The notes under the pieces: model-generated
Told to the model about the DNA's origin: nothing
What the model saw: only the letters and a program-made list of their open reading frames with translations
Database searches by the model: none
Position numbers and translations under genes: made by a program
From: Marinobacterium sp.
GTDB taxonomy: Bacteria > Pseudomonadota > Gammaproteobacteria > Pseudomonadales > Balneatricaceae
DNA: 16,000 nucleotides
Direction of reading: 5' to 3'
Assembly: GCA_048260865.1 (NCBI GenBank)
Contig: JBLXGN010000003.1
Span: 87,320-103,319, forward strand
Shown: positions 2 to 16,000 of the stretch, piece by piece
Layout: each line of letters begins with the position of its first letter
How positions within the stretch are numbered: the first letter of the stretch is position 1

Positions 2-1564
2 GCATTGGGCTTTTACACTCAGCTCAATGCGGATCTGCTCAGCGTGGCCGCAACGATAGCGAATCTGAGCCAGGATGCCGAGATCGCTCGTAGTTCAGCC
101 GCTTTCTACTCTTTTCTTCAGGCTAAAGAGCGAGCCGGTATCGAACGCGCGGTGCTAAGTAATGTCTTCGGGAGTGACCAGTTTGGGCCCGGACTGTATC
201 AGCGCTTCATCAATCTGGTTTCAGAGCAGAACACATATCTGAATCAATTCAAGGCACTCGCCACTTCCAGCAGCATTCAGGCCTATCAGGACATGACCGG
301 CTCCAGCGAGTTTCAGGCGGTAGAAAAGCTGCGCAGTATCGCCATGGAGCGTGCCGACAGCGGGCAGTTTGGGGTAAAAGGCACGGAATGGTTTGACCGT
401 GCCACTGACCGCATCAACCTGCTCAAGGCCTTTGAAGACAAACTGGCCTCTCAGTTGATCGGTACCGCCAGCCAGGCCCACGCTCAAGCCCAACGACATG
501 CGTGGCTCAGTCTGGCCGCTCTGCTTGCCACGCTCTTGCTGGTCGGGCTGATTTCCATCTGGATCATCCGTGGATTACACCGTCAGGTTGATGCGCTCTC
601 TCGCACCATGGCCTCGGTGCGCAACGAACATGACCTGACGGTTCGATCAGCCGTAATGTCAAAAGATGAGCTGGGCACTACCGCCGAACACCTGAACCAG
701 ATGCTCGAGCAGTTTGCCAACGCCATGAGCGAAGTATCCCAGGCCAGCAAGCAACTCTATGAAGAGTCGCAAAATACGTCTCGTGTAGTGCTCCAGGCAG
801 AAACCAGCATCAAATTGCAAAGCGACGAAACCATGCAAGTAGCCGCCGCCGTGGAAGAAGTTTCCACGGCTGTACAGGATGTGGCCAACAGCACCGTTAA
901 TGCCTCCGATGCAGCACTGGAAGCTGACCGTTTGGCACAGGATGGCCATGCCAAGGTCACAGCCGCTGCAACAGCGGTCGCCAATCTGGCACATGACAGT
1001 CAGCAATTGTCCGACATGACCGCGCGCCTGAACGAAAGCAGCCAGAAAATCTCTGATGTGACCGATGTCATCAACAGCGTGTCTGAACAGACCAACCTGC
1101 TGGCCCTTAATGCGGCCATCGAAGCCGCTCGTGCCGGTGAACAGGGACGTGGTTTTGCCGTGGTGGCTGATGAGGTACGCACCCTGGCTCAGCGTACTCA
1201 GGCGTCCACATCGGAAATTGATGCCATCATTCGCAAACTGCAGCAGGAAACCCAGCAGGCCAGCGACCTGGTGGCAAGTAATCAGCGTGACATGCTGACG
1301 GCAACCGAACGTGCACGTGAGGTAGAGGAATCTCTGGATGCCATTGTTGCGGCCATTGCCAGCATTACCAACATGTCGACCCAGATAGCCGCTGCAGCCG
1401 AGGAAGAATCAGCCGCCATCAATAACATTGGACAGAATATTACGCGTATCGACACCAGCGCAGAAGCGATCAAGGACAGTGCACACAGTCTGACCTCTCA
1501 CGCCGAACAGCAACTACGATTGGCGGAAGGGCTCAGTAACCTGATTGCACGCTTCAAGATCTGA
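2..1564 (+). CDS. Methyl-accepting chemotaxis protein with NIT-like periplasmic sensor domain, 5'-truncated by the window edge
   Basis: The frame is open from base 2, and the track's M at base 5 is only a TTG. About 165 aa of helical sensor sequence ([23 protein letters not shown]) resembles the NIT nitrate/nitrite-sensing domain. A TM helix follows ([22 protein letters not shown]), then a HAMP-like linker, then the canonical MCP signalling hairpin [38 protein letters not shown]. Stop codon at 1562-1564. Confidence 0.9.
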
Positions 1565-1583: not shown

Positions 1584-1621
1584 ACGATCCCGGCGACTTA
1601 TACGTGCCGGGATCGTGTTTT
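1584..1621 (+). terminator. Rho-independent terminator candidate for the MCP gene, embedded in the 3' end of convergent ygiQ
   Basis: Perfect 11-bp stem: acgatcccggc (1584-1594) pairs with gccgggatcgt (1606-1616). The loop is 11 nt and is followed by gTTTTgg. It starts 20 nt after the MCP stop. Confidence 0.5.
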
Positions 1622-3868
1622 GGCTTTGCTGTTGCGGCCTTTGGCAGCGGGCTTGGCAGCTCCCTGCTTACGACCTTGTCCACCCGTGCTCCGTGGCGGC
1701 AAGCCTGTATGCTGAGTCAACAACTTACCCTTGGCGGCACGACCGGCCCCGGCACGGCTGGAACTGGGTGAATTTTTGCGTCGCGGGTTCACATGCTGCG
1801 CATCCTCCGGCTGGGTCGCAGGGATCAACTGTTTCTCGCCATCGCCGATCAGATCGGCACGCCCCATCTCGGTAAGTGCTTCACGCAGCAATGGCCAGTT
1901 ATCCGGGTCATGCCAACGCAGAAACGCCTTGTGCAAACGGCGCTGACGCTCCCCTTTTACGGTTTCAACCTTCTCACCGCTCTTCTTGTACGTGAGCTTG
2001 CGCAGCGGGTTGCGACCGGAATGGTACATCGCCGTGGCCGTTGCCATCGGTGAGGGGTAGAACGCCTGTACCTGATCCGCCTTGAAGCCGTTCCGTTTCA
2101 GCCAAAGTGCCAGGTTCATCATGTCTTCGTCGGATGTGCCCGGATGCGCGGCGATAAAGTACGGAATCAGGTACTGATCCTTGCCCGCTTCTTTGGAGAA
2201 CTTCTCGAACATCTTTTTGAAAGCATCATAGGTACCGATGCCCGGCTTCATCATCTTGTCGAGCACACCACGTTCAGTATGCTCAGGTGCGATCTTGAGA
2301 TAGCCACCAACATGATGGGTCACCAGCTCGCGGACGTATTCCGGGTCTTGCACGGCAAGGTCGTAACGCAGGCCCGAGGCAATCAGGATCTTGTTTACAC
2401 CCTTGAGATCACGTGCCTTGCGATAAAGCGAGGTCAGCGAACTGTGATCGGTATTGAGGTTATGACAGATGCCAGGGAACACGCACGAAGGCTTGCGGCA
2501 CGCGGCCTCGATCTCGGGGCTCTTGCACGCCAGACGGTACATATTGGCAGTAGGGCCACCCAGGTCGGAAATGACACCGGTAAAGCCCGGCACCTTGTCA
2601 CGAATTTCTTCGATCTCGTTCAGGATCGACTCGTGAGAGCGGTTCTGAATGATGCGACCTTCATGCTCGGTAATGGAGCAGAAAGTACAGCCGCCGAAGC
2701 AGCCACGCATGATGTTGACCGAGAATCGGATCATTTTGTACGCCGGTATCTCCGCCTTGCCATAGGCCGGATGCGGCACGCGCTGATACGGCAGGCCGAA
2801 GACATGGTCCATCTCCTCGGTCGTCAACGGAATCGGCGGCGGGTTGAGCCAGACTTCCTGGTCGCCATGCAGCTGCACCAGCGCACGGGCGTTACCGGGA
2901 TTGGTTTCCAGATGCAGCACACGGTTGGCATGGGCATAGAGCACCGGGTCTTTGCTGACTTTTTCGAATGACGGCAAACGAATGACCGTCTGGCTGCGAT
3001 CCAGTTTGACGCGTGGCTCGATATGCAGAATCTGCACCTCGTCCTCGGCGTCCATCTCAGCGGTTTCTCCCCCTTCACGACCGTTTTCCAGCTGACAGGC
3101 TTCCAGATCGCGAGTGTTCACATAGGGGTTGATGATCTTGTCGATCTTGCCGGGACGATCGATACGGGTGGAGTCGATCTCCATCCAGTCTTCCGGCGTA
3201 TCCTTGCGCACAAAGGCAGTGCCACGCACGTCGGTGATTTCACTGACCGGTTCGCCACGGGCGATGCGGTGCGCCACTTCAACGATGGCACGCTCGGCAT
3301 TACCGTAGAGCAGCAGATCGGCACGGGCATCCAGCAGAATTGAGCGGCGCACCTTGTCCTGCCAGTAATCGTAATGGGCAATACGACGCAACGAGCCTTC
3401 GATACCACCCAGGATGATCGGCACTTCCTTATAGGCTTCTCGGCAGCGCTGGCTATACACCAGGCTGGCACGGTCCGGTCGGCTGCCCGCTTTACCGCCC
3501 GGTGTATAGGCATCATCGGAACGGATCTTTCGATCTGCCGTGTAGCGGTTGATCATGGAATCCATGTTGCCTGCGGCAACACCGAAAAACAGATTAGGCT
3601 TGCCCAGCGCCTTGAACGGCTCGGCAGAGTTCCAGTCCGGCTGGGCAATAATGCCGACCCGGAAGCCTTGGGACTCCAGCAAACGACCGATAATGGCCAT
3701 GCCGAATGACGGGTGATCCACATAGGCATCACCTGTCACGATGATAATGTCGCAGCTGTCCCAGCCAAGCTGGTCCATCTCCTCCCGGGACATGGGCATA
3801 AAGGGTGCAGGACCAAAACATTCGGCCCAGTATTTGGTGTAATCAAAAATCGGTGTTACTGCTTGCAT
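1598..3868 (-). CDS. ygiQ: YgiQ-family (UPF0313) radical SAM protein
   Basis: The N-terminus [50 protein letters not shown] is near-identical in pattern to E. coli YgiQ. The radical SAM cluster motif is [12 protein letters not shown] place the start at the ATG at 3868 (MQAVTPIF). The track's 23-aa extension to 3937 has no support. The C-terminal tail is Lys/Arg-rich. Confidence 0.9.
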
Positions 3869-3948
3869 GGATATCCCGGAATTGAGGCGCGTGCTAGGCG
3901 CGCGAGTATAGCGCATTTTTTGAACAGTTCCGACCATCCTGCCAACGC

Positions 3949-5536: not shown

Positions 5537-6262
5537 TCAATCCAGCTGCTCAATCCAGCCTGGCCCCAACTGCCGCATCTGCTGCCGAATCCAGCGCGCA
5601 CGCTCACGAATATAATCGGTCGGAGGCTGAGCCTGATATACCCAAGGGTTGGGCAAAATGGCAGCCAACCTTGCCGACTGATCTGCACTCATGCGCTCAA
5701 CTGGCCGTTGGTACCAGTATTCACTGGCAGCCCCTACCCCGTAGACACCGGGCGCAAACTCGACAATGTTCAGATAGAGCTCCAGCACCCTTCGCTTGCC
5801 CAAGATACCTTCCAGTAACAGTGCCAGCGGTGCTTCCATTCCTTTTCTGACCCAGTCACGGCCAGGCCAGAGAAACAGATTCTTGGCTGTCTGCTGGGTC
5901 AGGGTGCTTGCCCCACGAAGCCCTCTGCCATCCATCGCTTCCGATACGGCCTGACGCACTGCCTTCAGATCGACACCCTTATGCAGCGGGAAGCGCTGAT
6001 CCTCAGAAGCAACCACCGCAAGCTGCATGCTGACAGGTATCTGCTCCAGATCTACCCAGTGATGACGATATTCATCCGGATAGCCCTCAGGACTGCTCAA
6101 CTCACGCCAGATCATCCATGACCAGACGGGTGGATCTATGACTTTCAAGGACAAAACCAGCAATAACTGCAACACCACCAGTACCAGCACCAGACGCCAA
6201 AGCACCCACCAGATGGGGCGTAGCACGTAGCGAGATAGTTTGGATGGGGATCGACTGGTCAA
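5537..6262 (-). CDS. mtgA: Monofunctional biosynthetic peptidoglycan transglycosylase
   Basis: An N-terminal membrane anchor is followed by GT51 motifs: ASEDQRFPLHKG, RGASTLTQQTAKNLFLW, RKGMEA, and KRRVLELYLNIVEF. The C-terminus QLD matches E. coli MtgA. The start is a TTG at 6262, preceded by gagg. Confidence 0.85.
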   Translation of the reverse strand: MTSRSPSKLSRYVLRPIWWVLWRLVLVLVVLQLLLVLSLKVIDPPVWSWMIWRELSSPEGYPDEYRHHWVDLEQIPVSMQLAVVASEDQRFPLHKGVDLKAVRQAVSEAMDGRGLRGASTLTQQTAKNLFLWPGRDWVRKGMEAPLALLLEGILGKRRVLELYLNIVEFAPGVYGVGAASEYWYQRPVERMSADQSARLAAILPNPWVYQAQPPTDYIRERARWIRQQMRQLGPGWIEQLD

Positions 6263-6309
6263 GGTGCCTCTGTGAATAGTGCTAAAAGATTAGGGATTGT
6301 CAGGAAACT

Positions 6310-6338
6310 TTTACGTTAAGCTCCGGTCACCGTAATAT
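6310..6338 (+). promoter_or_regulatory. Candidate sigma70 promoter for the cop block
   Basis: TTTACG (6310-6315), a 17-bp spacer, then TAATAT (6333-6338). A weak dyad TTACG-N15-CGTAA spans the spacer. No experimental support. Confidence 0.3.
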
Positions 6339-6365
6339 ACTATGCCAACTCCATAAGTGACTGTC

Positions 6366-6701
6366 ATGTTTGCCGTATCCACCAACAGATTGACCGGATT
6401 GCTCAGCGCTCTTGCTCTGATCATGCTGTTGTTGGCACCCATCACGATGTCGGCAAGTTCAGCATCAATGACGGCTGATACCCTGATGGGCAACATGGCC
6501 CATGCACATGAGAGTTCACACACTGAGGACAACAGCTCCTCATGCTGGCAGCAGTGTCTAAATAGCTGCAGCAGCCACTGCACTCCAACCTTAATCAGCA
6601 TACCTCTGGCAAGTCTTGCCGGAGAAACCCTCGTTTATCTGCGACCTGATCTTTACCAGCCCCTGTTCCCCTCCGGACTGCATCGCCCTCCAAAGGTCTG
6701 A
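6366..6701 (+). CDS. Small secreted or membrane-anchored His/Cys-rich protein, putative copper-binding accessory protein
   Basis: ATG at 6366 gives 111 aa. The hydrophobic N-terminal segment is LTGLLSALALIMLLLAPITMSA. A His patch follows (MGNMAHAHESSHTED), then CWQQCLNSCSSHC, which is CX3CX3CX3C. The gene lies 67 nt upstream of copA on the same strand. Caveats: the Shine-Dalgarno sequence is weak and there are several rare codons (tta, ata, cta, aga). Any resemblance to DUF2946/CopL-type proteins is from memory only. Confidence 0.5.
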   Translation: MFAVSTNRLTGLLSALALIMLLLAPITMSASSASMTADTLMGNMAHAHESSHTEDNSSSCWQQCLNSCSSHCTPTLISIPLASLAGETLVYLRPDLYQPLFPSGLHRPPKV

Positions 6702-6768
6702 ATAGCCTTCTTTTCGGCTGCGCCCAGGGTGCAGCCAAGTATTCACATTGCTATTCAGGAGTACCTTC

Positions 6769-8709
6769 ATGAGTAAGGACAACGTTTTGCGTGCGCCCTC
6801 CAGGCGTCGTTTTGTCCAGGGATTGGCCCTGGGTGGTCTGGCTGCCGGGTTTGGATTGAGCAGCCGCTCCCTGCTGGCTGCCAGCGTACCTGCACCTCAG
6901 AGCACACCCGTGCTGTCCGGCACAGAGTTTGATCTCAATATTGGCCACCAGTTGGTCAATTTTACAGGCAAGGAAAAGCTCGCCACGACCGTTAACGGCA
7001 GCCTGCCAGCGCCAATCCTGCGTTGGCGCGAGGGTGATCGCGTGCGTCTTAACGTGAGCAACCATCTGCAAACGGACTCATCCATTCACTGGCACGGACT
7101 GATTCTCCCGACAGAAATGGATGGCGTACCGGGACTGAGTTTTGATGGTATCGCCCCGGGCGAAACCTTCAGCTACGAGTTCGACCTAAAGCAAAGCGGT
7201 ACCTACTGGTATCACAGCCATTCAGGGTTCCAGGAACAAACCGGTCTTTATGGCGCGATCATTATCGACCCTAAAGAGCCGGAACCTTTTGATTATGACC
7301 GTGACCATGTCGTCATCTTGTCTGACTGGAGTGACACACCACCGGATCAGGTGTTTGCCAACCTGAAGAAGATGAGTCACTACTACAACAGGCGTGAACG
7401 CAACCTGACGGACGATCTCATCCCCGAAATCCAGAAGGACGGCCTCGGCGCCACCTTCTCACGCCGCCAGATGTGGGAGAAAATGCGCATGAGTGACCGT
7501 GATATCTCCGATGTCACCGGTTACACCTATACCTTCCTGATGAATGGCCAAACACCAGCCAATGGCTGGACCGGTCTGTTCACGCCGGACGAAAAAATAC
7601 GCCTTCGTGTCATCAACGCCGCTGCCATGACGTTCTTTGACCTGCGCATTCCCGGCCTGAAAATGACGGTCGTCGCCTGTGATGGCCAGTATGTCCAACC
7701 CGTCACCGTGGATGAATTCCGTATCGGGATTGCCGAAACCATCGACGTGATTGTTGAACCCCAGAGCCATCAGGCCTATGCCCTTTTCGCCCAGGCGATC
7801 GACCGCTCCGGCTATGCCTTTGGTCAACTGACACCCGACCTTAGCCTGAAAGCTACACCTCCGCCGATGGACCCCGCCCCCGAGCTAAGCCATATGGACA
7901 TGGGCATGGATATGAGTAGCGGTAGTCATGGTGAACATGGCAGTCATGCCATGCCTGCACAAGATTCACACGCCGGACACGACCTGCATGCTGGTCATGC
8001 GGCCATGTCTCACGACGCCCACCAAAGCATGGCCATGCCGGTGCCTCAATCCCATGATCAACACTCAATGCCTGGCAATGCTCATCAGGCTCACGCGGGC
8101 CACGGCAAGACACAAAGCAGCGGACATGGCATGTCGCATGGCAGCAGCCATTCAATGGAGCCGACCTACAAGGGTCACCCTCTCTCCGCCGGTATGACCG
8201 TCCACAGCGAAACTGAGTACGGCCCCCATGTAGATATGCGTGCCGAGGCTCCGCAATACCGTTTGGATGACCCAGGTGTGGGTCTGCGTAACAACGGACG
8301 CAAAGTACTGACGTATGCGGATCTGCGCAGCTTGTATCCAACGCCTGATACTCGTGAGCCCGGCCGGGAAATTGAGCTGCATTTGACCGGCAACATGAGC
8401 CGCTACATGTGGTCGATCAACGGCATTCGATATGCAGACGCCGAGCCTATCCACCTGAACTACGGTGAGCGCGTGCGCATCACGCTGGTCAACGACACCA
8501 TGATGCCGCACCCGATTCACCTGCATGGCATGTGGAGCGACCTGGAAACCGGTGATGCCACTCACTTGCCCCGCAAGCACACTCTGGTGGTTCAGCCGGG
8601 TGCCAAATTGAGCTATCTGGTCACCGCCGATGCCCGAGGCGAATGGGCGTTTCACTGCCACCTGCTCTACCACATGATGGGCATGTTCCGAAAAGTCGTG
8701 GTCAGCTGA
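6769..8709 (+). CDS. copA: Copper-resistance multicopper oxidase CopA/PcoA, Tat-exported
   Basis: The start is the ATG at 6769, preceded by aggag. The twin-arginine signal is SRRRFVQGLALGGLAAG. The four copper-ligand blocks are HWHGL, WYHSHS, HPIHLHG and HCHLLYHMMGM. A Met/His-rich insert of about 100 aa sits before the C-terminal cupredoxin domain. Confidence 0.92.
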   Translation: MSKDNVLRAPSRRRFVQGLALGGLAAGFGLSSRSLLAASVPAPQSTPVLSGTEFDLNIGHQLVNFTGKEKLATTVNGSLPAPILRWREGDRVRLNVSNHLQTDSSIHWHGLILPTEMDGVPGLSFDGIAPGETFSYEFDLKQSGTYWYHSHSGFQEQTGLYGAIIIDPKEPEPFDYDRDHVVILSDWSDTPPDQVFANLKKMSHYYNRRERNLTDDLIPEIQKDGLGATFSRRQMWEKMRMSDRDISDVTGYTYTFLMNGQTPANGWTGLFTPDEKIRLRVINAAAMTFFDLRIPGLKMTVVACDGQYVQPVTVDEFRIGIAETIDVIVEPQSHQAYALFAQAIDRSGYAFGQLTPDLSLKATPPPMDPAPELSHMDMGMDMSSGSHGEHGSHAMPAQDSHAGHDLHAGHAAMSHDAHQSMAMPVPQSHDQHSMPGNAHQAHAGHGKTQSSGHGMSHGSSHSMEPTYKGHPLSAGMTVHSETEYGPHVDMRAEAPQYRLDDPGVGLRNNGRKVLTYADLRSLYPTPDTREPGREIELHLTGNMSRYMWSINGIRYADAEPIHLNYGERVRITLVNDTMMPHPIHLHGMWSDLETGDATHLPRKHTLVVQPGAKLSYLVTADARGEWAFHCHLLYHMMGMFRKVVVS

Positions 8710-8719
8710 GGAGACACTG

Positions 8720-9421
8720 ATGAATTTGCGAAAAACTATTCCCCTGCTGGCCCTGCTAACGCCAGCACTGACTCAGGCAGCCATGACAGATGACCCTGTG
8801 CTCGGCATGCTCAATGTAAAACAGCTGGAAGCAGCCTACATCGAGGACGATGTCCAGCTGCAATGGAATGTGGAAGGCTGGCTGGGAACGGATTTGCACA
8901 AGCTGGTCCTGACCAGCGAGGGTGCTCGACTGGATGGCCGCACCAGCAGCAATGAGCTGCGCCTGTTTTACCGCCGTGCCATCAGCCCCTATTGGAATAT
9001 GGAGCTGGGCTGGCATCATGAGCCTCTTGCTCTGCAGCGTGATGATCGCGCACTGATCGGTATCAGCGGCACCGCACCCTGGTTTATCGAAACTGAGGCC
9101 ACCCTGCTGGCGGGCCCCGGCAGTGATCTGAGTGCCGAGCTTAGCCTGGAACGCGAACTAAGACTCTCTCGTCAGTGGGTACTGGCTCCGGAAATGGGTC
9201 TAACCGCACATAACTTCAGCGACAGAGCCGAACATCATGGCAGTGGCCTGAGTGACCTTGAGCTGGAGTTGCGCCTGCTGTGGGAAATACGGCCTGACGT
9301 TACCCCTTACGTTGGCGTCAGTTGGGAGCGCAAACTGGGAGATAGCGCAGATCTGGCCCGGGATACCGGACATGACGTCGAAGAAACCCAGTGGCGGCTG
9401 GGGATAAGTTTCTGGTTCTAA
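8720..9421 (+). CDS. copB: Copper resistance protein B, outer-membrane CopB/PcoB family, short form
   Basis: gaggag lies 7 nt upstream of the ATG. The signal peptide ends ALTQA. CopB-like blocks are present: QLEAAYIEDDVQLQWNVEGWLGTDLHKLVLTSEG, LFYRRAISPYWNMELGWHHEP, and a C-terminal aromatic residue (ISFWF). It starts 10 nt after copA. Confidence 0.85.
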   Translation: MNLRKTIPLLALLTPALTQAAMTDDPVLGMLNVKQLEAAYIEDDVQLQWNVEGWLGTDLHKLVLTSEGARLDGRTSSNELRLFYRRAISPYWNMELGWHHEPLALQRDDRALIGISGTAPWFIETEATLLAGPGSDLSAELSLERELRLSRQWVLAPEMGLTAHNFSDRAEHHGSGLSDLELELRLLWEIRPDVTPYVGVSWERKLGDSADLARDTGHDVEETQWRLGISFWF

Positions 9422-9432
9422 CGGAGATCAAG

Positions 9433-9870
9433 ATGAGACACACAATAAAAACCCTGATGCTCACTGCCAGTCTGTTGGCTCTGCCGGTAACGGCACATGC
9501 TCATACCAATCACTGCAAGGATACGCAGCTGGGCGACCAGATGAAGTCCCTGAAGGAAAACTTCAAGACCTATCGTCAGGCCCTGTCCGAAGAGAACTGG
9601 CAGCAGATGGCTCAAGCGCGTGCAGAAATGCAGAGTCTGGCGACTGCTGCGGGTGACGAGCAACCGCTCAAAATGCATGATCTGCCCGCTGATCAGCACC
9701 CGCAGATGATGCAGGAGTATCAACAGGGACTCGCCAAACTGAATGATCTCTTTGACCAGCTGGCTCAGGCAGAGCAGGCGCAAAATGCCGATGCAGCTGC
9801 AGACCTGGTGGGTCTTATTGGCCAGCATAGCAAGCAAAGCCATGAGTCAATGCGCAAGGACTGCGATTAA
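9433..9870 (+). CDS. Periplasmic cytochrome b562-like four-helix-bundle protein
   Basis: ATG at 9433, preceded by ggag. The signal peptide is cleaved at [10 protein letters not shown]. By eye it aligns with E. coli CybC over its length: [11 protein letters not shown] matches EDNMETLNDNL and covers the Met7 ligand position. [23 protein letters not shown] matches [33 protein letters not shown] matches TTRNAYHKKYR and covers the His102 ligand position. The track's start at 9391 overlaps copB and is rejected. Confidence 0.6.
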   Translation: [145 protein letters not shown]

Positions 9871-9938: not shown

Positions 9939-10694
9939 TCAGGGCGTTTCAAGATACTCACTGGCCCCCGGCCCCGGTTGCCACACCTGTATAAAGTCGG
10001 CACGAAACAGGAAGCCCTGTACCGCATCCACACCCAACTGTCGTGCGCGTTCAAACTGCTGCTCGTTTTCAACGCCCTCAAGAATCACCAGCTTGCCACT
10101 GGCCTTGGCGAAAATAATCAGCGCTTCGAACAACGCATCGGCGCCTGTTCCTGTCAGCCGACACAGCCAATCCCGCGCCAGTTTGACATAGTCCACACCC
10201 GCTAAAAGATCGAAGGACACCAGACTGTCCTGCGCGCCCACATCATCCAGCGCCAGTGGCAAACCGGCATCCCCAAAAGCCTGCTGCATGGCAATACTGA
10301 CCTGAGCATCAGACACTGAGCTGTTTTCAATAATTTCGACCACCGTATCAGGTCGATGCCGCAACAGCTCCACCATCGGGTGCAAAGGCTCATGCAGGAA
10401 CACTTCGAAGGCATCCTGATCAATATTGAGAAACAGATTGGGGCTATCAGGTGCGTGCAGCACCTGCAGCTGCTTCACCCGGTACTCCATTTGGAACAGG
10501 CTCAAGGGGCTGTGATGCAAGGCCCTGAACACCCGGTCAGGCGGCAAACGCTCGCCTCCATTCATGCGAAAGCGAGCCAAGGCTTCATGTCCCAGAACAC
10601 GACGATCCTGAGTTGAAACAATCGGCTGGTATTCCACACCTATACCCTTGCCGCCAAGAAAATCCAGCAGTGTTGCTGGTGAAATGTCATGCAT
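9939..10694 (-). CDS. Stand-alone EAL-domain protein, predicted c-di-GMP phosphodiesterase
   Basis: 251 aa with no sensor or GGDEF domain. The EAL catalytic set appears intact: YQPIV, HEALAR (E and R), LFLNID (N), EIIENS (E..E), LDDVGAQ (DD), VKLARD (K), LEGVENE (E), and VQGFLF (Q). Confidence 0.85.
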   Translation of the reverse strand: MHDISPATLLDFLGGKGIGVEYQPIVSTQDRRVLGHEALARFRMNGGERLPPDRVFRALHHSPLSLFQMEYRVKQLQVLHAPDSPNLFLNIDQDAFEVFLHEPLHPMVELLRHRPDTVVEIIENSSVSDAQVSIAMQQAFGDAGLPLALDDVGAQDSLVSFDLLAGVDYVKLARDWLCRLTGTGADALFEALIIFAKASGKLVILEGVENEQQFERARQLGVDAVQGFLFRADFIQVWQPGPGASEYLETP

Positions 10695-10765: not shown

Positions 10766-11377
10766 TTAAGGGGCTAACTCCTGTTGCAACTGGCGATACC
10801 AGACATCCAGCATGCGCGGATCAGCCTGACTGACCTGCACAGTTGGAAACAGTGCTTTGGCACCGGCTTCCTGCATACGGTGTGTAACCGACAGCCCAAA
10901 AGCGCAGAACTGTGGATAACTGCGATCGCCCAGTGCAAGGACGGCAAAGGGACGCTCGGCAAGGGTCGGGGAAACAGGCTCGACATCCCAGCCTATGGCG
11001 GTTTTGGGCGGATCACCCGCCCCCGTGGTACTGACTACCATCAATAGTGCCCTGTCCGGCGGCTCAACGGTTGTCAGGCGATTGAGGGGGATGGTATCGG
11101 CGCTGAAACCAGACTTGCGCATACGCTTGCGCGTTTCCTGCGCCAGCTGCCGCGCGGTACCGGTTTCGGTGCCATAGGCGATCCAGATATCCTGGCGGCC
11201 GCTGGCCTGCTCACTGCCCGCACCGGCACGACGCAAGGCCCGCCAAACCACCAGGGTATAAGCCCCCAGCGCAAGGCTCGCCAGCCAGCGTCGTTCCGTA
11301 TCAACGCCACTGAACTGCCAGACCAGCACCAGGGCCAATCCGAGCAGCACCAGCAGGCTTTTCAGTCCTATCTTCAA
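10766..11377 (-). CDS. Membrane-anchored flavodoxin-like protein (CysJ-type FMN-binding domain only)
   Basis: Two N-terminal hydrophobic helices (SLLVLLGLALVLVWQF and WLASLALGAYTLVVW) precede FMN-domain blocks: IAYGTETGTARQLAQE, LLMVVSTTGAGDPP, and FAVLALGDRSYPQFCAFG. The TTG start overlaps the upstream stop as TTGA. No FAD/NADPH domain follows. Confidence 0.75.
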   Translation of the reverse strand: MKIGLKSLLVLLGLALVLVWQFSGVDTERRWLASLALGAYTLVVWRALRRAGAGSEQASGRQDIWIAYGTETGTARQLAQETRKRMRKSGFSADTIPLNRLTTVEPPDRALLMVVSTTGAGDPPKTAIGWDVEPVSPTLAERPFAVLALGDRSYPQFCAFGLSVTHRMQEAGAKALFPTVQVSQADPRMLDVWYRQLQQELAP

Positions 11378-12186
11378 AGCGGCAGCACTTCAATCGTTGC
11401 GGTATAGCCCAAACGCTTGCTTGCCCCTTCAATTTGGGTGGAAGGCTGCTCACCGGAAACATTGAGCCAATACATGCCCGGCTCCTTGAAGGTTACGTTC
11501 AGGTTACCTTCTGCATCAGTGGTCAATTTGATTTCTTCAACACTGTCACGGTAGCGGATACCGCCACGAATCAGCACCGCTTCCAGGCCTCCAGCAGGCT
11601 GACCATCAGCCAGGAACTGGAAAGTCACCGGCTCACCGGTAAAGAGATCATTCGGGTGTGTTACCGGTACCAGTTCCAGGCCTTCGCCTGTCGGCTTGAA
11701 GGTTGTCTCGGTGGGCGCACCCTTGGTCACGAAGACCTGCATGCGGTTATCCACTTCGCTGATCTGCAGATCTTCAGCATCCTTGGGGATACGCTTGTCC
11801 ATTTTGTCGGCTTTACCGAACCAGCGCTTGGGTTCGCCATTCTGGGTATAACGCGCAAAGACTCCCTGACGGCGCACTTCCAGGGTATAGGTACCATCTT
11901 CTGTCAGTTCGACATCGAAGGTAGAACGATACTTGCCCAGCGCCTGGTTCTGCGCTTCAACCTCTGCACCGCTCGGAGACGTAATTTTCAACGCGCCCAG
12001 CTGCAGCGGGAAATGCTCGAAGTAGAACAGGCTGTTGGACACGGCACCATCAACCGTAACCCAGGTATTTTCGCCGGACAAAACAGTTGCAGAGGGCAGC
12101 ATCCAGCTACGGTGAGCCTGAGCATTCATGGCCGTTCCCAGACCCAGAGCCAACAGCGCGCAAGCGCTCAAACGTTTGATATTCAT
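11374..12186 (-). CDS. Periplasmic DUF4198-family protein (COG5266-like metal-binding Ig-like fold)
   Basis: The signal peptide MNIKRLSACALLALGLGTAMNAQA would leave a mature N-terminus HRSWMLPS. The protein is beta-rich, and the pattern GTYTLEV, GLELVPVTHPNDL, GEPVTFQFLADGQP, GMYWLNV is typical of DUF4198 as I recall it. Confidence 0.7.
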   Translation of the reverse strand: MNIKRLSACALLALGLGTAMNAQAHRSWMLPSATVLSGENTWVTVDGAVSNSLFYFEHFPLQLGALKITSPSGAEVEAQNQALGKYRSTFDVELTEDGTYTLEVRRQGVFARYTQNGEPKRWFGKADKMDKRIPKDAEDLQISEVDNRMQVFVTKGAPTETTFKPTGEGLELVPVTHPNDLFTGEPVTFQFLADGQPAGGLEAVLIRGGIRYRDSVEEIKLTTDAEGNLNVTFKEPGMYWLNVSGEQPSTQIEGASKRLGYTATIEVLPL

Positions 12187-12213
12187 GCTATTTCCTTATG
12201 TGTTTGGCGTAAT

Positions 12214-12732
12214 TCAGGGTGTAAGTTCCAGCGCAACACGACCCAGCTCATGTTCACCCTGCAACTGTTGCTGCTGGGCTGCGGTGGCGGGCCACTGGAA
12301 CGGCAGTTTCAACAGTTCTCGTCCACCCAGCTCGCGTGCGGCTTCGATCACCAGGCGGTAGTTGCCGGCAGGCAACTGGGCCAGTTTTGGATCATTCGCG
12401 CCGAAGGTCATTTCATGGGAACCGACGGGGCGAGTCGCCCCCGAGAGGCCATCAACCGGCATATCCAGTTTGCGACCGCTGTGGCGCCACCACAGACGCA
12501 AGTCCTTTAGCCACTTGGTGCCTTCGTTATCGCGCATCTCCAGGTCGTACCAGACAGACAGATCCTGCTGGTGACGACCCTTATCGTTCTCGACCCATAC
12601 CGCCACATAGGGGCGGTGGTGCTCCGCTATATCGATGGCAGGTACTTCAACTTGAACCTTGAGTTCAGCCGCCATCACCTGGCTTGCCGCTGAAGACAGC
12701 AGCACTGCCGCTGTCATCTGTTTCCATTGCAT
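12214..12732 (-). CDS. Periplasmic DUF2271-family protein with ApbE-type flavinylation motif
   Basis: The signal peptide ends QVMA/AE. DUF2271-like blocks are HRPYVAVWVEN and KWLKDLRLWWRHSGR. The motif DGLSGAT occupies residues 94-100 (nt 12433-12453). aaggag precedes the ATG. Confidence 0.8.
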   Translation of the reverse strand: MQWKQMTAAVLLSSAASQVMAAELKVQVEVPAIDIAEHHRPYVAVWVENDKGRHQQDLSVWYDLEMRDNEGTKWLKDLRLWWRHSGRKLDMPVDGLSGATRPVGSHEMTFGANDPKLAQLPAGNYRLVIEAARELGGRELLKLPFQWPATAAQQQQLQGEHELGRVALELTP

Positions 12733-12797
12733 ACTTACTCCTTAACACGACGGCCGAAGGCTATCGGCACTGCCCTTTCATTTCGTACTTTGCCCAC

Positions 12798-13475
12798 TTA
12801 ATGCACCAGCAGCAGCGCCAGTAAAACCGGAACCACTACACCCAGCCCCGTTACGGGCCAGACAGAGGCTCGTTCGCGCTCATGCAGCCAGAGCACCGCC
12901 AGCCCCGTCAGGCTGAACACGAGACACACCAGTGCAAAAAAGTCGATAAACAGGCTCCAGGCCTGGCCGGCGTTGCGCCCCTTGTGCAGATCATTCAGGT
13001 AAGCGATCCAGCCACGATCGGTGGATTCGTACAGCAGCTCACCGGTTTCAAGATCCACGCTGAGCCAGGCATCTCCGCCGGGACGGGGCATGGACAGATA
13101 GACTTCAAACTCGGACCACTCCGGCGTGCGTAGAGGCACACTTAAACCCTTCTCCGTTTTGAGCCAGTTTCGCAATGACAGTGGCAACTCAGACTGCGCT
13201 TGCTGAGCCTGCTGAAGCGATTCCAGCATATGCTCAGGCAGTGCTTCTTCAATGGTGACAACGTCCTTGGAAGCCGGGATCTGACCGGCATGATTCAGCG
13301 TGAACCCTGTGACGGCGAACAGCAGCATGCCAAACAAAGCGAATGCAGAGCTGACCCAGTGCCAGGTCATAAGGCGGCGCATCCATACTGCACGAACGTG
13401 CCTCTGAGGCTTACCCTGAGACCCGGGTCGTTCGGCCGCCTCGACTTCTGCTCCAAGCTGTTGACTGTCCTTCAT
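12798..13475 (-). CDS. PepSY-associated TM-helix protein (PiuB/FoxB-like, short form)
   Basis: The TM1 context is RRLMTWHWVSSAFALFGMLLFAVTGFTLNHAG. A periplasmic PepSY-like insert of about 100 aa follows (AWLSVDLETGELLYES), then LNDLHKGRNAGQAWSLFIDFFALVCLVFSLTGLAVLWLHE and a third TM helix. The start is uncertain: ATG at 13475 or the internal ATG at 13382 (MRRLMTWHW). Confidence 0.8.
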   Translation of the reverse strand: MKDSQQLGAEVEAAERPGSQGKPQRHVRAVWMRRLMTWHWVSSAFALFGMLLFAVTGFTLNHAGQIPASKDVVTIEEALPEHMLESLQQAQQAQSELPLSLRNWLKTEKGLSVPLRTPEWSEFEVYLSMPRPGGDAWLSVDLETGELLYESTDRGWIAYLNDLHKGRNAGQAWSLFIDFFALVCLVFSLTGLAVLWLHERERASVWPVTGLGVVVPVLLALLLVH

Positions 13476-13539
13476 TTCGCGCTTGATCCCGCCGCCTCAA
13501 AAGCGAGGAGATTAGAACAATTCTCAATAATAAACAACG

Positions 13540-13566
13540 AATGATAATAATTCGTAATGATAATTT
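13540..13566. promoter_or_regulatory. Fur box 1
   Basis: gaATGATAATAATTCGTAATGATAATtt contains two TGATAAT half-sites (13542-13548 and 13558-13564). The 7-1-7 reading TGATAAT-A-ATTCGTA matches TGATAATnATTATCA at 11 of 14 positions. Confidence 0.7.
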
Positions 13567-13573
13567 ATGTAAA
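13544..13573 (-). promoter_or_regulatory. Candidate sigma70 promoter of the PepSY-DUF2271-DUF4198-FMN operon
   Basis: On the minus strand, TTTACA (plus-strand coordinates 13568-13573), an 18-bp spacer, then TATTAT (13544-13549). The spacer and the -10 element are covered by Fur box 1. Confidence 0.45.
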
Positions 13574-13617
13574 GCCCTCCTCGCTAGCTCAGGCCGATCT
13601 GCAATTATAGTAATACA

Positions 13618-13636
13618 AATGATAATAATTATTAGT
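13618..13636. promoter_or_regulatory. Fur box 2
   Basis: TGATAAT-A-ATTATTA (13620-13634) matches the 7-1-7 Fur consensus TGATAATnATTATCA at 13 of 14 positions. It lies about 110 nt upstream of the receptor start and overlaps a possible -10 element, GATAAT (13621-13626). Confidence 0.75.
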
Positions 13637-13745
13637 ATTGCTTTGATGTAAACAAATCTTTACCCTTCTCCGCGATTTCAACTCACTGCTGTTACTAGCG
13701 GACAACGACTACAAAACTATAACCACAAGGATAAGGAACTGAATC

Positions 13746-16000
13746 GTGAGGATTTCTCCCCAACGCGTCACGGCGTTTGCGCTGACCAGTGCCATTGCGG
13801 CCACCTTTGCACAGGCCTCTCAAGCAGAATCCAGGAACACTGTTGATCAGGACACTCTGGTCATCAGCGCAGCCGGTATCGAACAGAAACTGATCGATGC
13901 TCCTGCTTCCATCACCGTGATTAGTCAGGAAGAGCTCAGGAAGAAGCCTTATCTCACTCTGCTGGACGCCGTGCGTGAAGTAGAAGGTGTGGATGTGGGT
14001 GAAACCACTGATAAAACAGGCCAGGGCGGTATCAGCATCCGTGGTATGGGTGCCGACTACACGCTGATCCTGATCGACGGCAAGCGTCAGAACAACATCG
14101 GTGACATTTATCCGAACAACTTCGGCGGTAACCAGTTCAATCATATTCCGCCCAAGGAGATGATCGAGCGTATCGAGATCATCCGTGGCCCAGCGTCCAC
14201 GCTTTACGGCGCCGATGCACTGGGCGGCGTGATTAATATCATCACAAAGAAAGTCGGCAACGAGTGGCACGGCTCTGTATCCCACAGCCGTACCATCGAA
14301 TCCAACGATGATTTCGGTAATGACCAGACCACCGACTTTGCCATCAGCGGCCCTATGATCGAAGGCAAGCTGGGCTTGAATCTGCGCGGCAGCCTGTACG
14401 AGCGTGACGCGTCCACTCCCAGCTTCGATGACATCACCGATCCCAATGGAGATCTGGTTCCCCGCTCACTGGGTTACGGCTCTGGCGGCAAGACTGTGGA
14501 TAACGAAAACCGTAACCTGGGTATGCGCCTGGACTTCAAACCGGCCGACAACCAACTGCTGATGTTCGACATCGAAACCTCGCAGCAGGAATACGATAAC
14601 GTCCCGGTAGACGGTTCCAACCCGCTGGGTACCACCGACAGCGTCAACCGCCTTCCCCGTGCCGGCTACGCGCTGGAGCAGGAGTTCAAGCGTGACCAGA
14701 TGTCCCTGACCCATGAAGGCACCTGGGGCTTCGGTCATAGCACCATCAGCCTGCACCACATTGAAACCAGCAACGATGGCCGCACCCTGCCGCTGACCGC
14801 AACAGAACGACTGTTGTACGAAGAAATGGTCGCAAACGGTGCCATCGATGCTGAAATTGAAGCCACCTTCCTGCCACGCCAGAAGCGTGTTCTGGAAACC
14901 CGTCAGACCACACTGGATGTAAAATTCGACAGCCAGGTGGGTGATCATTGGCTGGTGTACGGTGGTCAGTATGTCGATGCCGAAATGGAAGACGGTACCT
15001 TCGGCATGAACGGCAGCGGCTTTGCCTCCGGCAGTGTACAGGAGCACAAGCAGTGGTCCCTGTTCGCCGAAGACAACTGGTCATTGACCAACAGCCTGAC
15101 CCTGACCGGCGGTCTGCGCTATGACGATCACAACATTTTCGGCGGTCATGTCAGCCCCCGCGTTTATGCCAACTGGGCCGTTTCACCTGAGTGGACACTG
15201 AAAGGTGGCGTCAGCACCGGCTACAAGGCACCTCAGGCCAGCGATCTGTATGACGGCATTACCGGCTTTGGTGGCCAGGGCACCCGTCCTTTCCATGGCA
15301 CACCGGACCTGGAACCGGAAACCAGTGTGAACAGCGAACTGGCGGTGTACTACAGCCACCCGGAAGGTCACAACTTCAACGCCACCCTGTTCTCCAACAA
15401 GTTCAAGGACAAGATCGAGAGCGGCGCGGGTATCTACCACTGTGATGATCCGGCGGCCAATGCTGGCAACTGTGCAAACCTTGCGTCCGAGTGGAATGAG
15501 ATTCTGGGTGACGGCTACCAGTTCAGTCAGCTGGTCAATATCGACAGTGCCCAGATTGACGGTCTGGAACTGGCCGGTAAGCTGCAGCTGACGCCGACCC
15601 TGAACCTGCGTGCCAACTACACGTATACCGATGCCCGTATCACCAGCGGCGCTAACAAGGGTGAACCGCTTAGCGGCACAGCCAAACATATGGCTAACGC
15701 CACGCTGAGCTGGCAGGCGACATCGAAGTTCAACACCTTCCTGACAGCAGAAATGCGCTCCAAGCGCTTCACCAGCAGCCCGCGCGGCTGGAACTCTGAT
15801 GTGGAATACCCGGAGTACTACAAGGACTATACCGTCTATCACCTGGGTGCCAGCTATGAAGTCACACCCAACTTCGTGCTGAATGCTCGTATCAACAACC
15901 TGCTGGACGAAGACTTCACCAGCTACAAGACTGTGTTCACCACTGAAGATGGTGGCGCCAGTTGGGATCCCAACTACATCGACGATTACAACGTCAAAGC
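13746..16000 (+). CDS. TonB-dependent siderophore receptor (CirA/FepA/IrgA-like), 3'-truncated by the window edge
   Basis: This gene is absent from the ORF track. My own translation from the GTG at 13746 (aagga 8 nt upstream) stays open to base 16000. The signal peptide is MRISPQRVTAFALTSAIAATFAQA and the TonB box is DTLVISA. Plug motifs are APASITVISQEEL, GISIRGMGADYTLILIDGKRQN, and IERIEIIRGPASTLYGADALGGVINIITKK. Barrel motifs are GGLRYDDH, LKGGVSTGYKAPQASDLY, PDLEPETS, and LRANYTYTDA. Confidence 0.9.
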   Translation, partial: MRISPQRVTAFALTSAIAATFAQASQAESRNTVDQDTLVISAAGIEQKLIDAPASITVISQEELRKKPYLTLLDAVREVEGVDVGETTDKTGQGGISIRGMGADYTLILIDGKRQNNIGDIYPNNFGGNQFNHIPPKEMIERIEIIRGPASTLYGADALGGVINIITKKVGNEWHGSVSHSRTIESNDDFGNDQTTDFAISGPMIEGKLGLNLRGSLYERDASTPSFDDITDPNGDLVPRSLGYGSGGKTVDNENRNLGMRLDFKPADNQLLMFDIETSQQEYDNVPVDGSNPLGTTDSVNRLPRAGYALEQEFKRDQMSLTHEGTWGFGHSTISLHHIETSNDGRTLPLTATERLLYEEMVANGAIDAEIEATFLPRQKRVLETRQTTLDVKFDSQVGDHWLVYGGQYVDAEMEDGTFGMNGSGFASGSVQEHKQWSLFAEDNWSLTNSLTLTGGLRYDDHNIFGGHVSPRVYANWAVSPEWTLKGGVSTGYKAPQASDLYDGITGFGGQGTRPFHGTPDLEPETSVNSELAVYYSHPEGHNFNATLFSNKFKDKIESGAGIYHCDDPAANAGNCANLASEWNEILGDGYQFSQLVNIDSAQIDGLELAGKLQLTPTLNLRANYTYTDARITSGANKGEPLSGTAKHMANATLSWQATSKFNTFLTAEMRSKRFTSSPRGWNSDVEYPEYYKDYTVYHLGASYEVTPNFVLNARINNLLDEDFTSYKTVFTTEDGGASWDPNYIDDYNVK

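Follow-up and report, generated by a model that had tools for sequence, protein, structure and literature searches.

What does an operon of four small genes do when it lies divergent from a siderophore receptor gene and its products look like links of an electron transfer chain? The question is raised by positions 10,766 to 13,475 of a 16,000-nucleotide (nt) stretch of Marinobacterium sp. DNA (GenBank assembly GCA_048260865.1, contig JBLXGN010000003.1, forward-strand positions 87,320 to 103,319), here called the window. An initial annotation, made from the letters alone, had proposed that the operon encodes a path carrying electrons from the cytoplasm to the periplasm for the reduction of ferric iron. 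In our analysis all the parts named there are present and conserved, and the path agrees with the published model of PepSY-like systems. We conclude, with a probability of about 70%, that the operon encodes a Fur-repressed flavin/haem transmembrane electron conduit that would reduce Fe(III) in the periplasm. The features concerned, from the first gene of the operon to the last and then across the divergent region, are:

12798-13475, minus strand: PepSY_TM_like_2 gene, 225 amino acids (aa), PF16357
12214-12732, minus strand: DUF2271 gene, secreted protein of 172 aa, PF10029, with an AAGGAG ribosome-binding site
11374-12186, minus strand: DUF4198 gene, secreted protein of 270 aa, PF10670
10766-11377, minus strand: gene for an anchored flavin mononucleotide (FMN) domain (flavodoxin), 203 aa, PF00258
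13476-13745, unstranded: divergent promoter/operator region with three conserved Fur-like elements (blocks A, B and C)
13746-16000, plus strand: TonB-dependent receptor gene, cut by the window end, with Plug and TonB_dep_Rec_b-barrel domains

The coordinates and the spacing of the four tightly packed genes were re-derived and came out as annotated: 65 nt and 27 nt separate the first three genes, and the last two share a 4-nt TTGA, made up of the TGA stop of the DUF4198 gene and the TTG start of the flavodoxin gene. This unusual start could be fixed because, across 23 homologues, conservation of the flavodoxin begins at residue 1. Pfam places each of the four proteins, with a large margin, in the family that had been guessed for it: the PepSY protein in PF16357 (E 4.5e-76, with PF03929 also matched at 42 bits, above its cutoff of 28.8), and the others in PF10029 (E 4e-48), PF10670 (E 4e-54) and PF00258 (E 7e-22). 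Terminator-like hairpins inside the operon number 6, compared with 4.7 in shuffles, and the flagged ones lie within coding sequence; given this frequency and location they are not evidence against co-transcription. The four-gene module encodes no permease or ABC transporter, as had been stated, and an Rfam scan of the window returned no RNA family.

To place this operon among its relatives, one genome per species was scanned with the flavodoxin alignment, and 80 loci were typed by tblastn with the window proteins together with queries for ApbE, flavin adenine dinucleotide (FAD)/NAD-binding domains, PiuC and long PepSY_TM proteins, which were drawn from the loci themselves and verified with Pfam. 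Domain queries were used since greedy calling of open reading frames (ORFs) proved unusable in high-GC (guanine plus cytosine) loci, where it yields spurious long antisense ORFs. The forms distinguished are:

Five-gene form: 43 loci, in Xanthomonadaceae, Undibacterium, Chitinimonas, Brevundimonas, Rhizobacter and others
PiuB-like form: 13 loci, mostly in Pseudomonas, one polypeptide with long PepSY_TM, flavodoxin and FAD/NAD parts
Short form: 19 loci plus the window, in Marinobacterium (12), Marinobacter (6) and Bermanella (1)

The five-gene form encodes PepSY2, DUF2271, DUF4198, ApbE and, as its reductase, an anchored flavodoxin-FAD-NAD protein of about 450-550 aa; genes for a TonB receptor and a PiuC-like 2-oxoglutarate oxygenase often lie ahead of it. 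The short form comprises PepSY2, DUF2271, DUF4198 and an anchored flavodoxin of 201-216 aa. The set PepSY2-DUF2271-DUF4198-(ApbE)-reductase recurs as a unit, in the same order, in 62 of the 80 loci; an orthologous receptor is divergent in 12 of the 19 short-form loci, and the 4-nt overlap is kept in 18 of them. Their flavodoxin domains are monophyletic in a neighbour-joining tree, and the ORFs are intact across the three genera at 36-91% identity. The same arrangement is seen in precomputed Pfam calls on a separate metagenomic contig. In an exhaustive search of 1.84 billion representatives the short form accounts for about six full-length clusters at 50% identity, compared with hundreds of long forms. 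Judged from census and tree, the window belongs to a rare trimmed lineage that arose once within a widespread type of operon. Because the four membrane-edge histidines, the flavinylation threonine and the FMN loops described below are all retained, the short form looks functional, with ApbE and an NAD(P)H-oxidising partner presumably encoded elsewhere. What is new here is this trimmed variant, which lacks ApbE and has an FMN-only reductase; the type of system is already published.

A few loci and matches from these searches have features of their own. A contig of a Parahaliea metagenome-assembled genome (L038, 3-1817) shows an intermediate arrangement, with a DUF4198 gene followed after 27 nt by a full anchored reductase with flavodoxin and FAD/NAD domains, and no ApbE between them; as the contig spans just 2.2 kb, an ApbE gene may lie in another part of the cluster. 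Two Marinobacter short-form loci have a cytochrome b561 gene (PF01292; L013 9103-9786, L017 8906-9589) about 0.5 kb downstream of the flavodoxin gene, together with a gene for a small secreted protein that is cytochrome c'-like by eye. Both genes are absent in Marinobacterium; their position may be fortuitous, or they may provide another source of electrons in the membrane. The top match of the exhaustive protein search (P0162) has 1839 aa with six separate flavodoxin-like stretches, and several further matches of 1000-4000 aa with 3-5 such stretches are likewise multi-FMN-domain proteins.

How could electrons cross the membrane? Hydropathy and an AlphaFold2 model (mean predicted local distance difference test, pLDDT, 82) give the PepSY protein three transmembrane (TM) helices at residues 23-61 (including TM1), 171-201 and 203-224, with a periplasmic alpha/beta PepSY-like domain modelled between TM1 and TM2 (beta part 71-153). 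The histidines that the initial annotation had placed at both ends of TM1 and TM2 are there: His39 and His62 bracket TM1, His164 and His198 bracket TM2, and each is 97-100% conserved in 64 homologues from related (cluster-linked) loci, the set that underlies the conservation figures for the PepSY, DUF2271 and DUF4198 proteins. In the model His39 and His198 lie on the cytoplasmic side and His62 and His164 on the periplasmic side. A fifth conserved histidine, His225 (codon 12798-12800), had gone unmentioned; it is located at the periplasmic end of TM3 and is the C-terminal residue in 98% of the homologues, which end in LLVH, LFIH and the like. These positions suggest that the PepSY protein is a dihaem b transmembrane electron carrier.

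On the periplasmic side, DUF2271 carries the predicted motif for covalent FMN attachment, SGAT, at residues 97-100 (S97-G-A-T100). Thr100 is at least 95% conserved, and the motif [S/T]-x-A-T is kept in 20 of 20 short-form loci. Flavinylation of DUF2271 by ApbE at the threonine of this motif has been shown experimentally (PMC8238504), and the protein encoded in the window would thus be a periplasmic electron carrier with covalently bound FMN. In the short form we assume that it is flavinylated; ApbE must then act in trans, which is plausible because the motif is retained. A literature search on Marinobacterium with ApbE or NQR gave nothing usable. In the cluster of Acinetobacter sp. ANC 3832 (L053) ApbE and DUF2271 are fused in a protein of 518 aa (5695-7251), with AKPS replacing SGAT; the gene order there is rearranged, with DUF4198 on the opposite strand.

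The second secreted protein, DUF4198, has a visible signal-peptide cleavage site, AQA/HRSW, so that the mature protein would begin with His25, as had been noticed. Among the 64 homologues His25 is conserved in 95%, His58 in 92% and His177 in 100%. An N-terminal histidine after signal cleavage is found in 79% of the DUF4198 family; in IsDUF4198 (PDB 9GCB) it binds Ni (PMC12537917). Zcp of N. gonorrhoeae (9MHI-9MHO) is a Zn-binding member, which our DUF4198 profile matches at E ~1e-6. The window protein resembles both in family, secretion and N-terminal histidine. It differs from these Zn- or Ni-binding, Zur- or Ni-linked proteins in that its clade conserves His25, His58 and His177 and sits in a redox operon with Fur-type operators. 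We suggest that it acts as a periplasmic metal-binding partner, with iron as the likely metal.

Where would the electrons enter? The best NCBIfam match of the fourth protein is cysJ (TIGR01931, FMN part) over residues 55-182. Its AlphaFold2 model (pLDDT 87) consists of a helical hairpin (helices 2-21 and 27-53, pLDDT ~90), a disordered linker and a flavodoxin fold. The FMN loops ETGTA, STTGxGD and LGDRSYxxFC are invariant in the 23 homologues, and Foldseek matches the domain to the FMN domains of NDOR1, CPR, iNOS reductase and CysJ (E 1e-10 to 1e-8). A basic stretch, RALRRAG, directly precedes the FMN domain and is strongly basic in all homologues. Because of this stretch, and because long homologues with the same N-terminal anchor carry an NAD(P)H-binding domain, the FMN domain is predicted to be cytoplasmic, in agreement with the two-helix anchor and orientation first proposed. 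The opposite placement, with the flavodoxin domain in the periplasm, was rejected on the basic residues before the domain in all forms and on the NAD(P)H domain of the long forms that share the anchor.

In fold and loops the window flavodoxin is like CysJ, CPR, NOS reductase and NDOR1, and it resembles in particular the FMN domains that feed haem proteins (CPR, NOS reductase, BM3). As in CPR, the domain is tethered by an N-terminal membrane anchor and would feed a haem protein. Unlike the diflavin reductases, the window protein has no FAD/NADPH half: the chain ends after the flavodoxin fold, and Pfam finds no FAD or NAD(P)H module (PF00667, PF00175) on its 203 aa, whereas the long form of the fourth protein adds FAD- and NAD-binding domains. 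In the absence of this half, the window flavodoxin should be unable to oxidise NAD(P)H alone.

Taken together, these parts suggest the following route. Reducing equivalents would first reach the FMN of the flavodoxin domain that the hairpin holds on the cytoplasmic side of the membrane, and from there electrons would pass to a haem b on the cytoplasmic side of the PepSY protein (ligands His39 and His198), on to a haem b on its periplasmic side (ligands His62 and His164, with the C-terminal His225 nearby) and then to the FMN covalently bound at Thr100 of DUF2271. Fe(III) would be reduced there, while the His25/His58/His177 site of DUF4198 would present or capture the metal. The iron might be siderophore-bound and delivered by the neighbouring TonB receptor, or might be held on DUF4198, and the Fe(II) so formed would be imported by a transporter whose gene is not linked to the operon. 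In the trimmed form, ApbE would act in trans, and electrons would reach the FMN domain from a separate flavoenzyme that oxidises NAD(P)H (e.g. Fpr-type) or, alternatively, from the general flavodoxin/ferredoxin-reducing machinery. Haem binding by the PepSY protein, the order of the carriers and the substrate are all inferred.

Is the operon under iron control? After a strict consensus search we ran scored scans for the 7-1-7 motif and the 19-mer, shuffles, a family-wide scan and phylogenetic footprinting on the divergent region aligned from seven Marinobacterium species. The best Fur-like site, at 13620-13634, matches 13 of 14 positions of the 7-1-7 motif, while only 7 of 2000 shuffled intergenic regions reach even 12/14; a second cluster around 13542 reaches 11/14. 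Both sites overlap -10-like hexamers of minus-strand promoter candidates, and -10/-35-like hexamers lie over blocks A and B. Block A (13616-13640) is conserved in 7/7 species and block B (13535-13573) in 5/7. Where the initial annotation had listed two Fur boxes, footprinting adds a third conserved element, the palindrome-like block C (13508-13527, TTGAGAATTGTTCTAATCTC on the operon strand), which is conserved in 7/7 species and lies nearest to the PepSY start codon. It resembles the TGAGAAT-N-ATTCTCA sites that many five-gene loci carry about 20 nt ahead of the PepSY gene. Across the family, a Fur-like palindrome of at least 12/14 precedes the PepSY gene by no more than 350 nt in 29 of 63 loci, compared with 1% of random segments.

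At the level of sequence, control of the operon by iron and Fur is therefore well supported, and the operon is probably repressed by Fur when iron is available. The receptor encoded on the other side of the region, from 13746 on the plus strand, was correctly recognised as a siderophore receptor. Its best NCBIfam models are PRK13486/PRK13483, CfrA, IreA and CirA, all scoring below their equivalog cutoffs, and by these matches it is of the catecholate-siderophore type (CirA/IreA/CfrA-like).

Systems of this type are known from comparative genomics. Méheust et al. defined "PepSY-like systems" in 2021 as PF03929/PF16357 proteins with ApbE, DUF2271 (2833 clusters) and DUF4198 (1500 clusters), and proposed transmembrane electron transfer for iron reduction or assimilation; 1077 of the systems have an NAD-binding domain on the PepSY-like gene itself and 231 include a TonB receptor (PMC8238504). 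In these clusters ApbE is frequent but not universal, and a cytosolic NAD(P)H-binding module (PF00175) occurs in a subset (PMC8238504). The link of DUF2271 and PepSY-like proteins to iron, which the initial annotation mentioned, is made in that study. The annotation's further statement that the combination has no biochemical description as a unit stands in part: our literature search found no biochemical reconstitution of the whole chain, but the system type is in print with iron reduction proposed for it.

Regulation has been studied in relatives. The five-gene operon CC3059-CC3063 (CCNA_03155-03159) of Caulobacter crescentus responds to iron limitation, and to a fur mutation, with a 12-50 fold induction, and Fur sites lie over its promoter (PMC3751524); transposon insertions in it lower fitness in EDTA (ethylenediaminetetraacetate), as measured by transposon sequencing (bioRxiv 10.1101/2024.10.16.618771). 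In Alteromonas, DUF2271/DUF4198 pairs beside iron-responsive receptors are induced under iron limitation (PMC7190382). The window operon shares with the PepSY-like systems and with CC3059-CC3063 the families and the order PF16357, DUF2271, DUF4198, CysJ-like reductase, the Fur-type operators upstream, the frequent TonB receptor neighbours and the proposed periplasmic reduction of Fe(III). It differs from them in that it has no apbE and that its reductase is a 203-aa FMN domain instead of a protein of 450-550 aa with FAD- and NAD-binding domains.

Closer comparison is possible with individual PepSY proteins. FoxB of P. aeruginosa (7ABW) is a dihaem PepSY_TM ferrioxamine reductase (the haems according to the FoxB preprint) whose electron donor is still called unknown, and Caulobacter HiuB is a FoxB-like homologue with haem sites predicted by AlphaFold. 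The window protein is like both in its PF03929 match above cutoff, the histidine pairs at both membrane faces, the adjacent TonB receptor and the model of reductive iron release; unlike FoxB, it has dedicated flavoprotein partners on both sides. VciB of V. cholerae (COG3295), as cited in PMC8238504 and bioRxiv 10.1101/2024.10.16.618771, is an inner-membrane protein that promotes Fe(III) reduction. Going by these citing papers, no other relative of the first gene has been characterised, and VciB, like the window module, comes without an ApbE gene; unlike the window module, it is described in PMC8238504 as not associated with DUF2271 or other flavinylation components. The PiuB-type fusions (PepSY_TM-flavodoxin-FAD/NAD, ~800-860 aa, e.g. 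in Pseudomonas) contain a homologous flavodoxin domain (32-38% identity) and, like the window operon, join a PepSY membrane part to a CysJ-like reductase. Unlike it, each consists of one polypeptide that includes a long PF03929 membrane domain and the whole of the reductase, and none of the 13 loci has DUF2271, DUF4198 or ApbE nearby.

Several observations weigh against an Fe(III)-reducing conduit under Fur control. As encoded, the wire is open at both service points, with neither an ApbE nor an FAD/NAD(P)H module. A tblastn search for ApbE in the window gave nothing (best E 0.025, spurious), and ApbE was found within 8 kb in 0 of 19 short-form loci, compared with 43 of 43 five-gene loci. An FNR-like FAD/NAD module is likewise absent from every reading frame of the window and of the 19 short-form loci (8 kb). 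As no NAD(P)H-binding module lies near the short-form operon, the electron source of the FMN domain is assumed and not seen. As to the two Fur boxes, the 13/14 site at 13620 and the 11/14 site at 13542 stand as Fur-like sites, but a search for the E. coli Fur 19-mer consensus with up to three mismatches returned no site, the overlapping 19-mer at 13621 matching at 15/19, i.e. with four mismatches.

The resemblance to FoxB is also limited in structural terms. The window protein is about half the size of FoxB, with one PepSY domain where FoxB has two, and three TM helices where FoxB has four. FoxB is the top Foldseek match of the PepSY model in the PDB, but a weak one (E 0.027, TM-score 0.24), and a profile search of the PDB with the PepSY profile did not reach it. 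Single-sequence PDB searches with the PepSY protein and DUF2271 gave chance matches only. With the Foldseek match below significance, filing the PepSY protein as FoxB-like on structural grounds was dropped. Possibly the half-size protein forms a haem-binding dimer, FoxB being a tandem of two such units. Further, the characterised DUF4198 proteins bind Zn or Ni and not Fe, and Fe soaks of Zcp gave no density. Finally, the reading of the operon as an iron-reducing conduit rests on sequence, models and homologues.

Could the metal be another one? That the module reduces or captures copper, nickel or zinc is unlikely, but of the alternatives it survives best. The Zn and Ni sites of characterised DUF4198 proteins are built from histidines that include the N-terminal one, and yet the Zn ligands of Zcp (H29/H31/H142) differ from the histidines conserved in this clade, a comparison in which the profile alignment with 9MHI spans residues 94-244 only, so that the N-terminal part of the triad falls outside it and a single conserved-His column, with His177 opposite an Asp of Zcp, is compared. 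CrpH of Bordetella, a PepSY_TM protein, is tied to copper, and genes for CopA, CopB and a cytochrome b562-like protein lie just downstream of the operon (6748-9870); these lie on the opposite strand, and in genera other than Marinobacterium they show no linkage to the module. The operators, which recur family-wide, resemble those of Fur and not those of Zur or CueR. The receptor is of the catecholate-siderophore type, and the homologous Caulobacter operon belongs to the Fur regulon and matters under iron chelation.

It is quite unlikely that the conduit is real but that electrons enter the short form from quinol or another membrane donor, with the FMN domain serving in regulation, assembly or reverse flow. 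Such a donor would fit a short form without NAD(P)H module and a FoxB-type reductase whose donor is still described as unknown. It fits less well with an FMN-domain gene that is invariably translationally coupled to the module, that keeps every FMN-binding loop and whose product is most closely related to the FMN domains of the NAD(P)H reductases that the long form has at the same operon position.

We consider it very unlikely that the operon is a decaying, non-functional remnant of the five-gene system. The loss of both ApbE and the FAD/NAD(P)H module in the window and the 19 short-form loci, and the rarity of the form in the exhaustive search, would be expected of a remnant; a monophyletic form maintained with intact ORFs in three genera would not, nor would the retention of the 4-nt coupling overlap, the FMN loops, the flavinylation threonine and the histidine ligands, with no trace of the lost modules in any reading frame. 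Least probable of all is a PepSY protein that serves as inner-membrane siderophore permease, with the DUF proteins as periplasmic binding or shuttle proteins and no electron transfer, as Manck et al. 2020 read PepSY-TM proteins beside iron-regulated receptors in Alteromonas (PMC7190382) and as a module with no other permease might suggest, since the protein has just three TM helices, its conserved residues are histidine pairs at two membrane faces, its obligatory partners are two flavoproteins (plus ApbE in the canonical form) and FoxB, formerly called a permease, is a dihaem reductase.

Other genes of the window lie outside the conserved module. One of them follows the operon on the same strand:

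9939-10694, minus strand: stand-alone EAL-domain protein, 251 aa, PF00563 (E 7e-33)

The gene for this EAL protein, of the cyclic di-guanosine monophosphate phosphodiesterase type, begins 71 nt downstream of the flavodoxin gene. An EAL gene is found downstream in 7 of the 19 short-form loci, all of them Marinobacterium, and in 0 five-gene loci; it may be a mere passenger, or it may share a transcript with the iron module. In the copper-resistance cluster on the plus strand (6748-9870), copA (6748-8709) encodes a multicopper oxidase with a long insert rich in His and Met; it is followed by copB (8720-9421) and by the ORF of a periplasmic protein of the cytochrome b562 family (9391-9870), which overlaps the 3' end of copB; the same trio adjoins the iron module in M. 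stanieri (L002). Two further genes are unrelated to the operon: one for a NIT-domain (nitrate/nitrite-sensing) methyl-accepting chemotaxis protein (5-1564, plus strand, cut by the window start) and one for a YgiQ-type radical S-adenosylmethionine protein with a Lys/Arg/Ala-rich C-terminal tail (1598-3937, minus strand).

Reductive iron release of the PepSY type is now recognised in several bacteria (FoxB, HiuB, FsrB, VciB), with the cytoplasmic donor described as unknown. Operons of the kind analysed here name a donor, the CysJ-like reductase, and a periplasmic relay, the flavinylated DUF2271, and they would give DUF4198 a redox context distinct from its known Zn and Ni roles. As the general idea is already in print, the value of the present locus lies in the variant and in its testability. 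The trimmed form of Marinobacterium and Marinobacter indicates that neither the FAD/NADPH module nor a dedicated ApbE is needed in cis, and with each cofactor on a separate small protein it offers a convenient minimal set for reconstitution. Tentatively, and as a possibility that we would not yet favour, the short form can be viewed as a natural "split" PepSY-like reductase, in which the stand-alone, hairpin-anchored FMN domain would be a dedicated module that docks to the three-helix PepSY protein and feeds its cytoplasmic haem, a housekeeping flavodoxin/ferredoxin-NADP+ reductase recharges this domain in place of an FAD/NADPH domain of its own, and a respiratory (NQR/RNF-associated) ApbE flavinylates DUF2271. 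If this were true, the four genes would be a minimal system that could be reconstituted to identify the electron donor of FoxB/VciB-type metal reductases.

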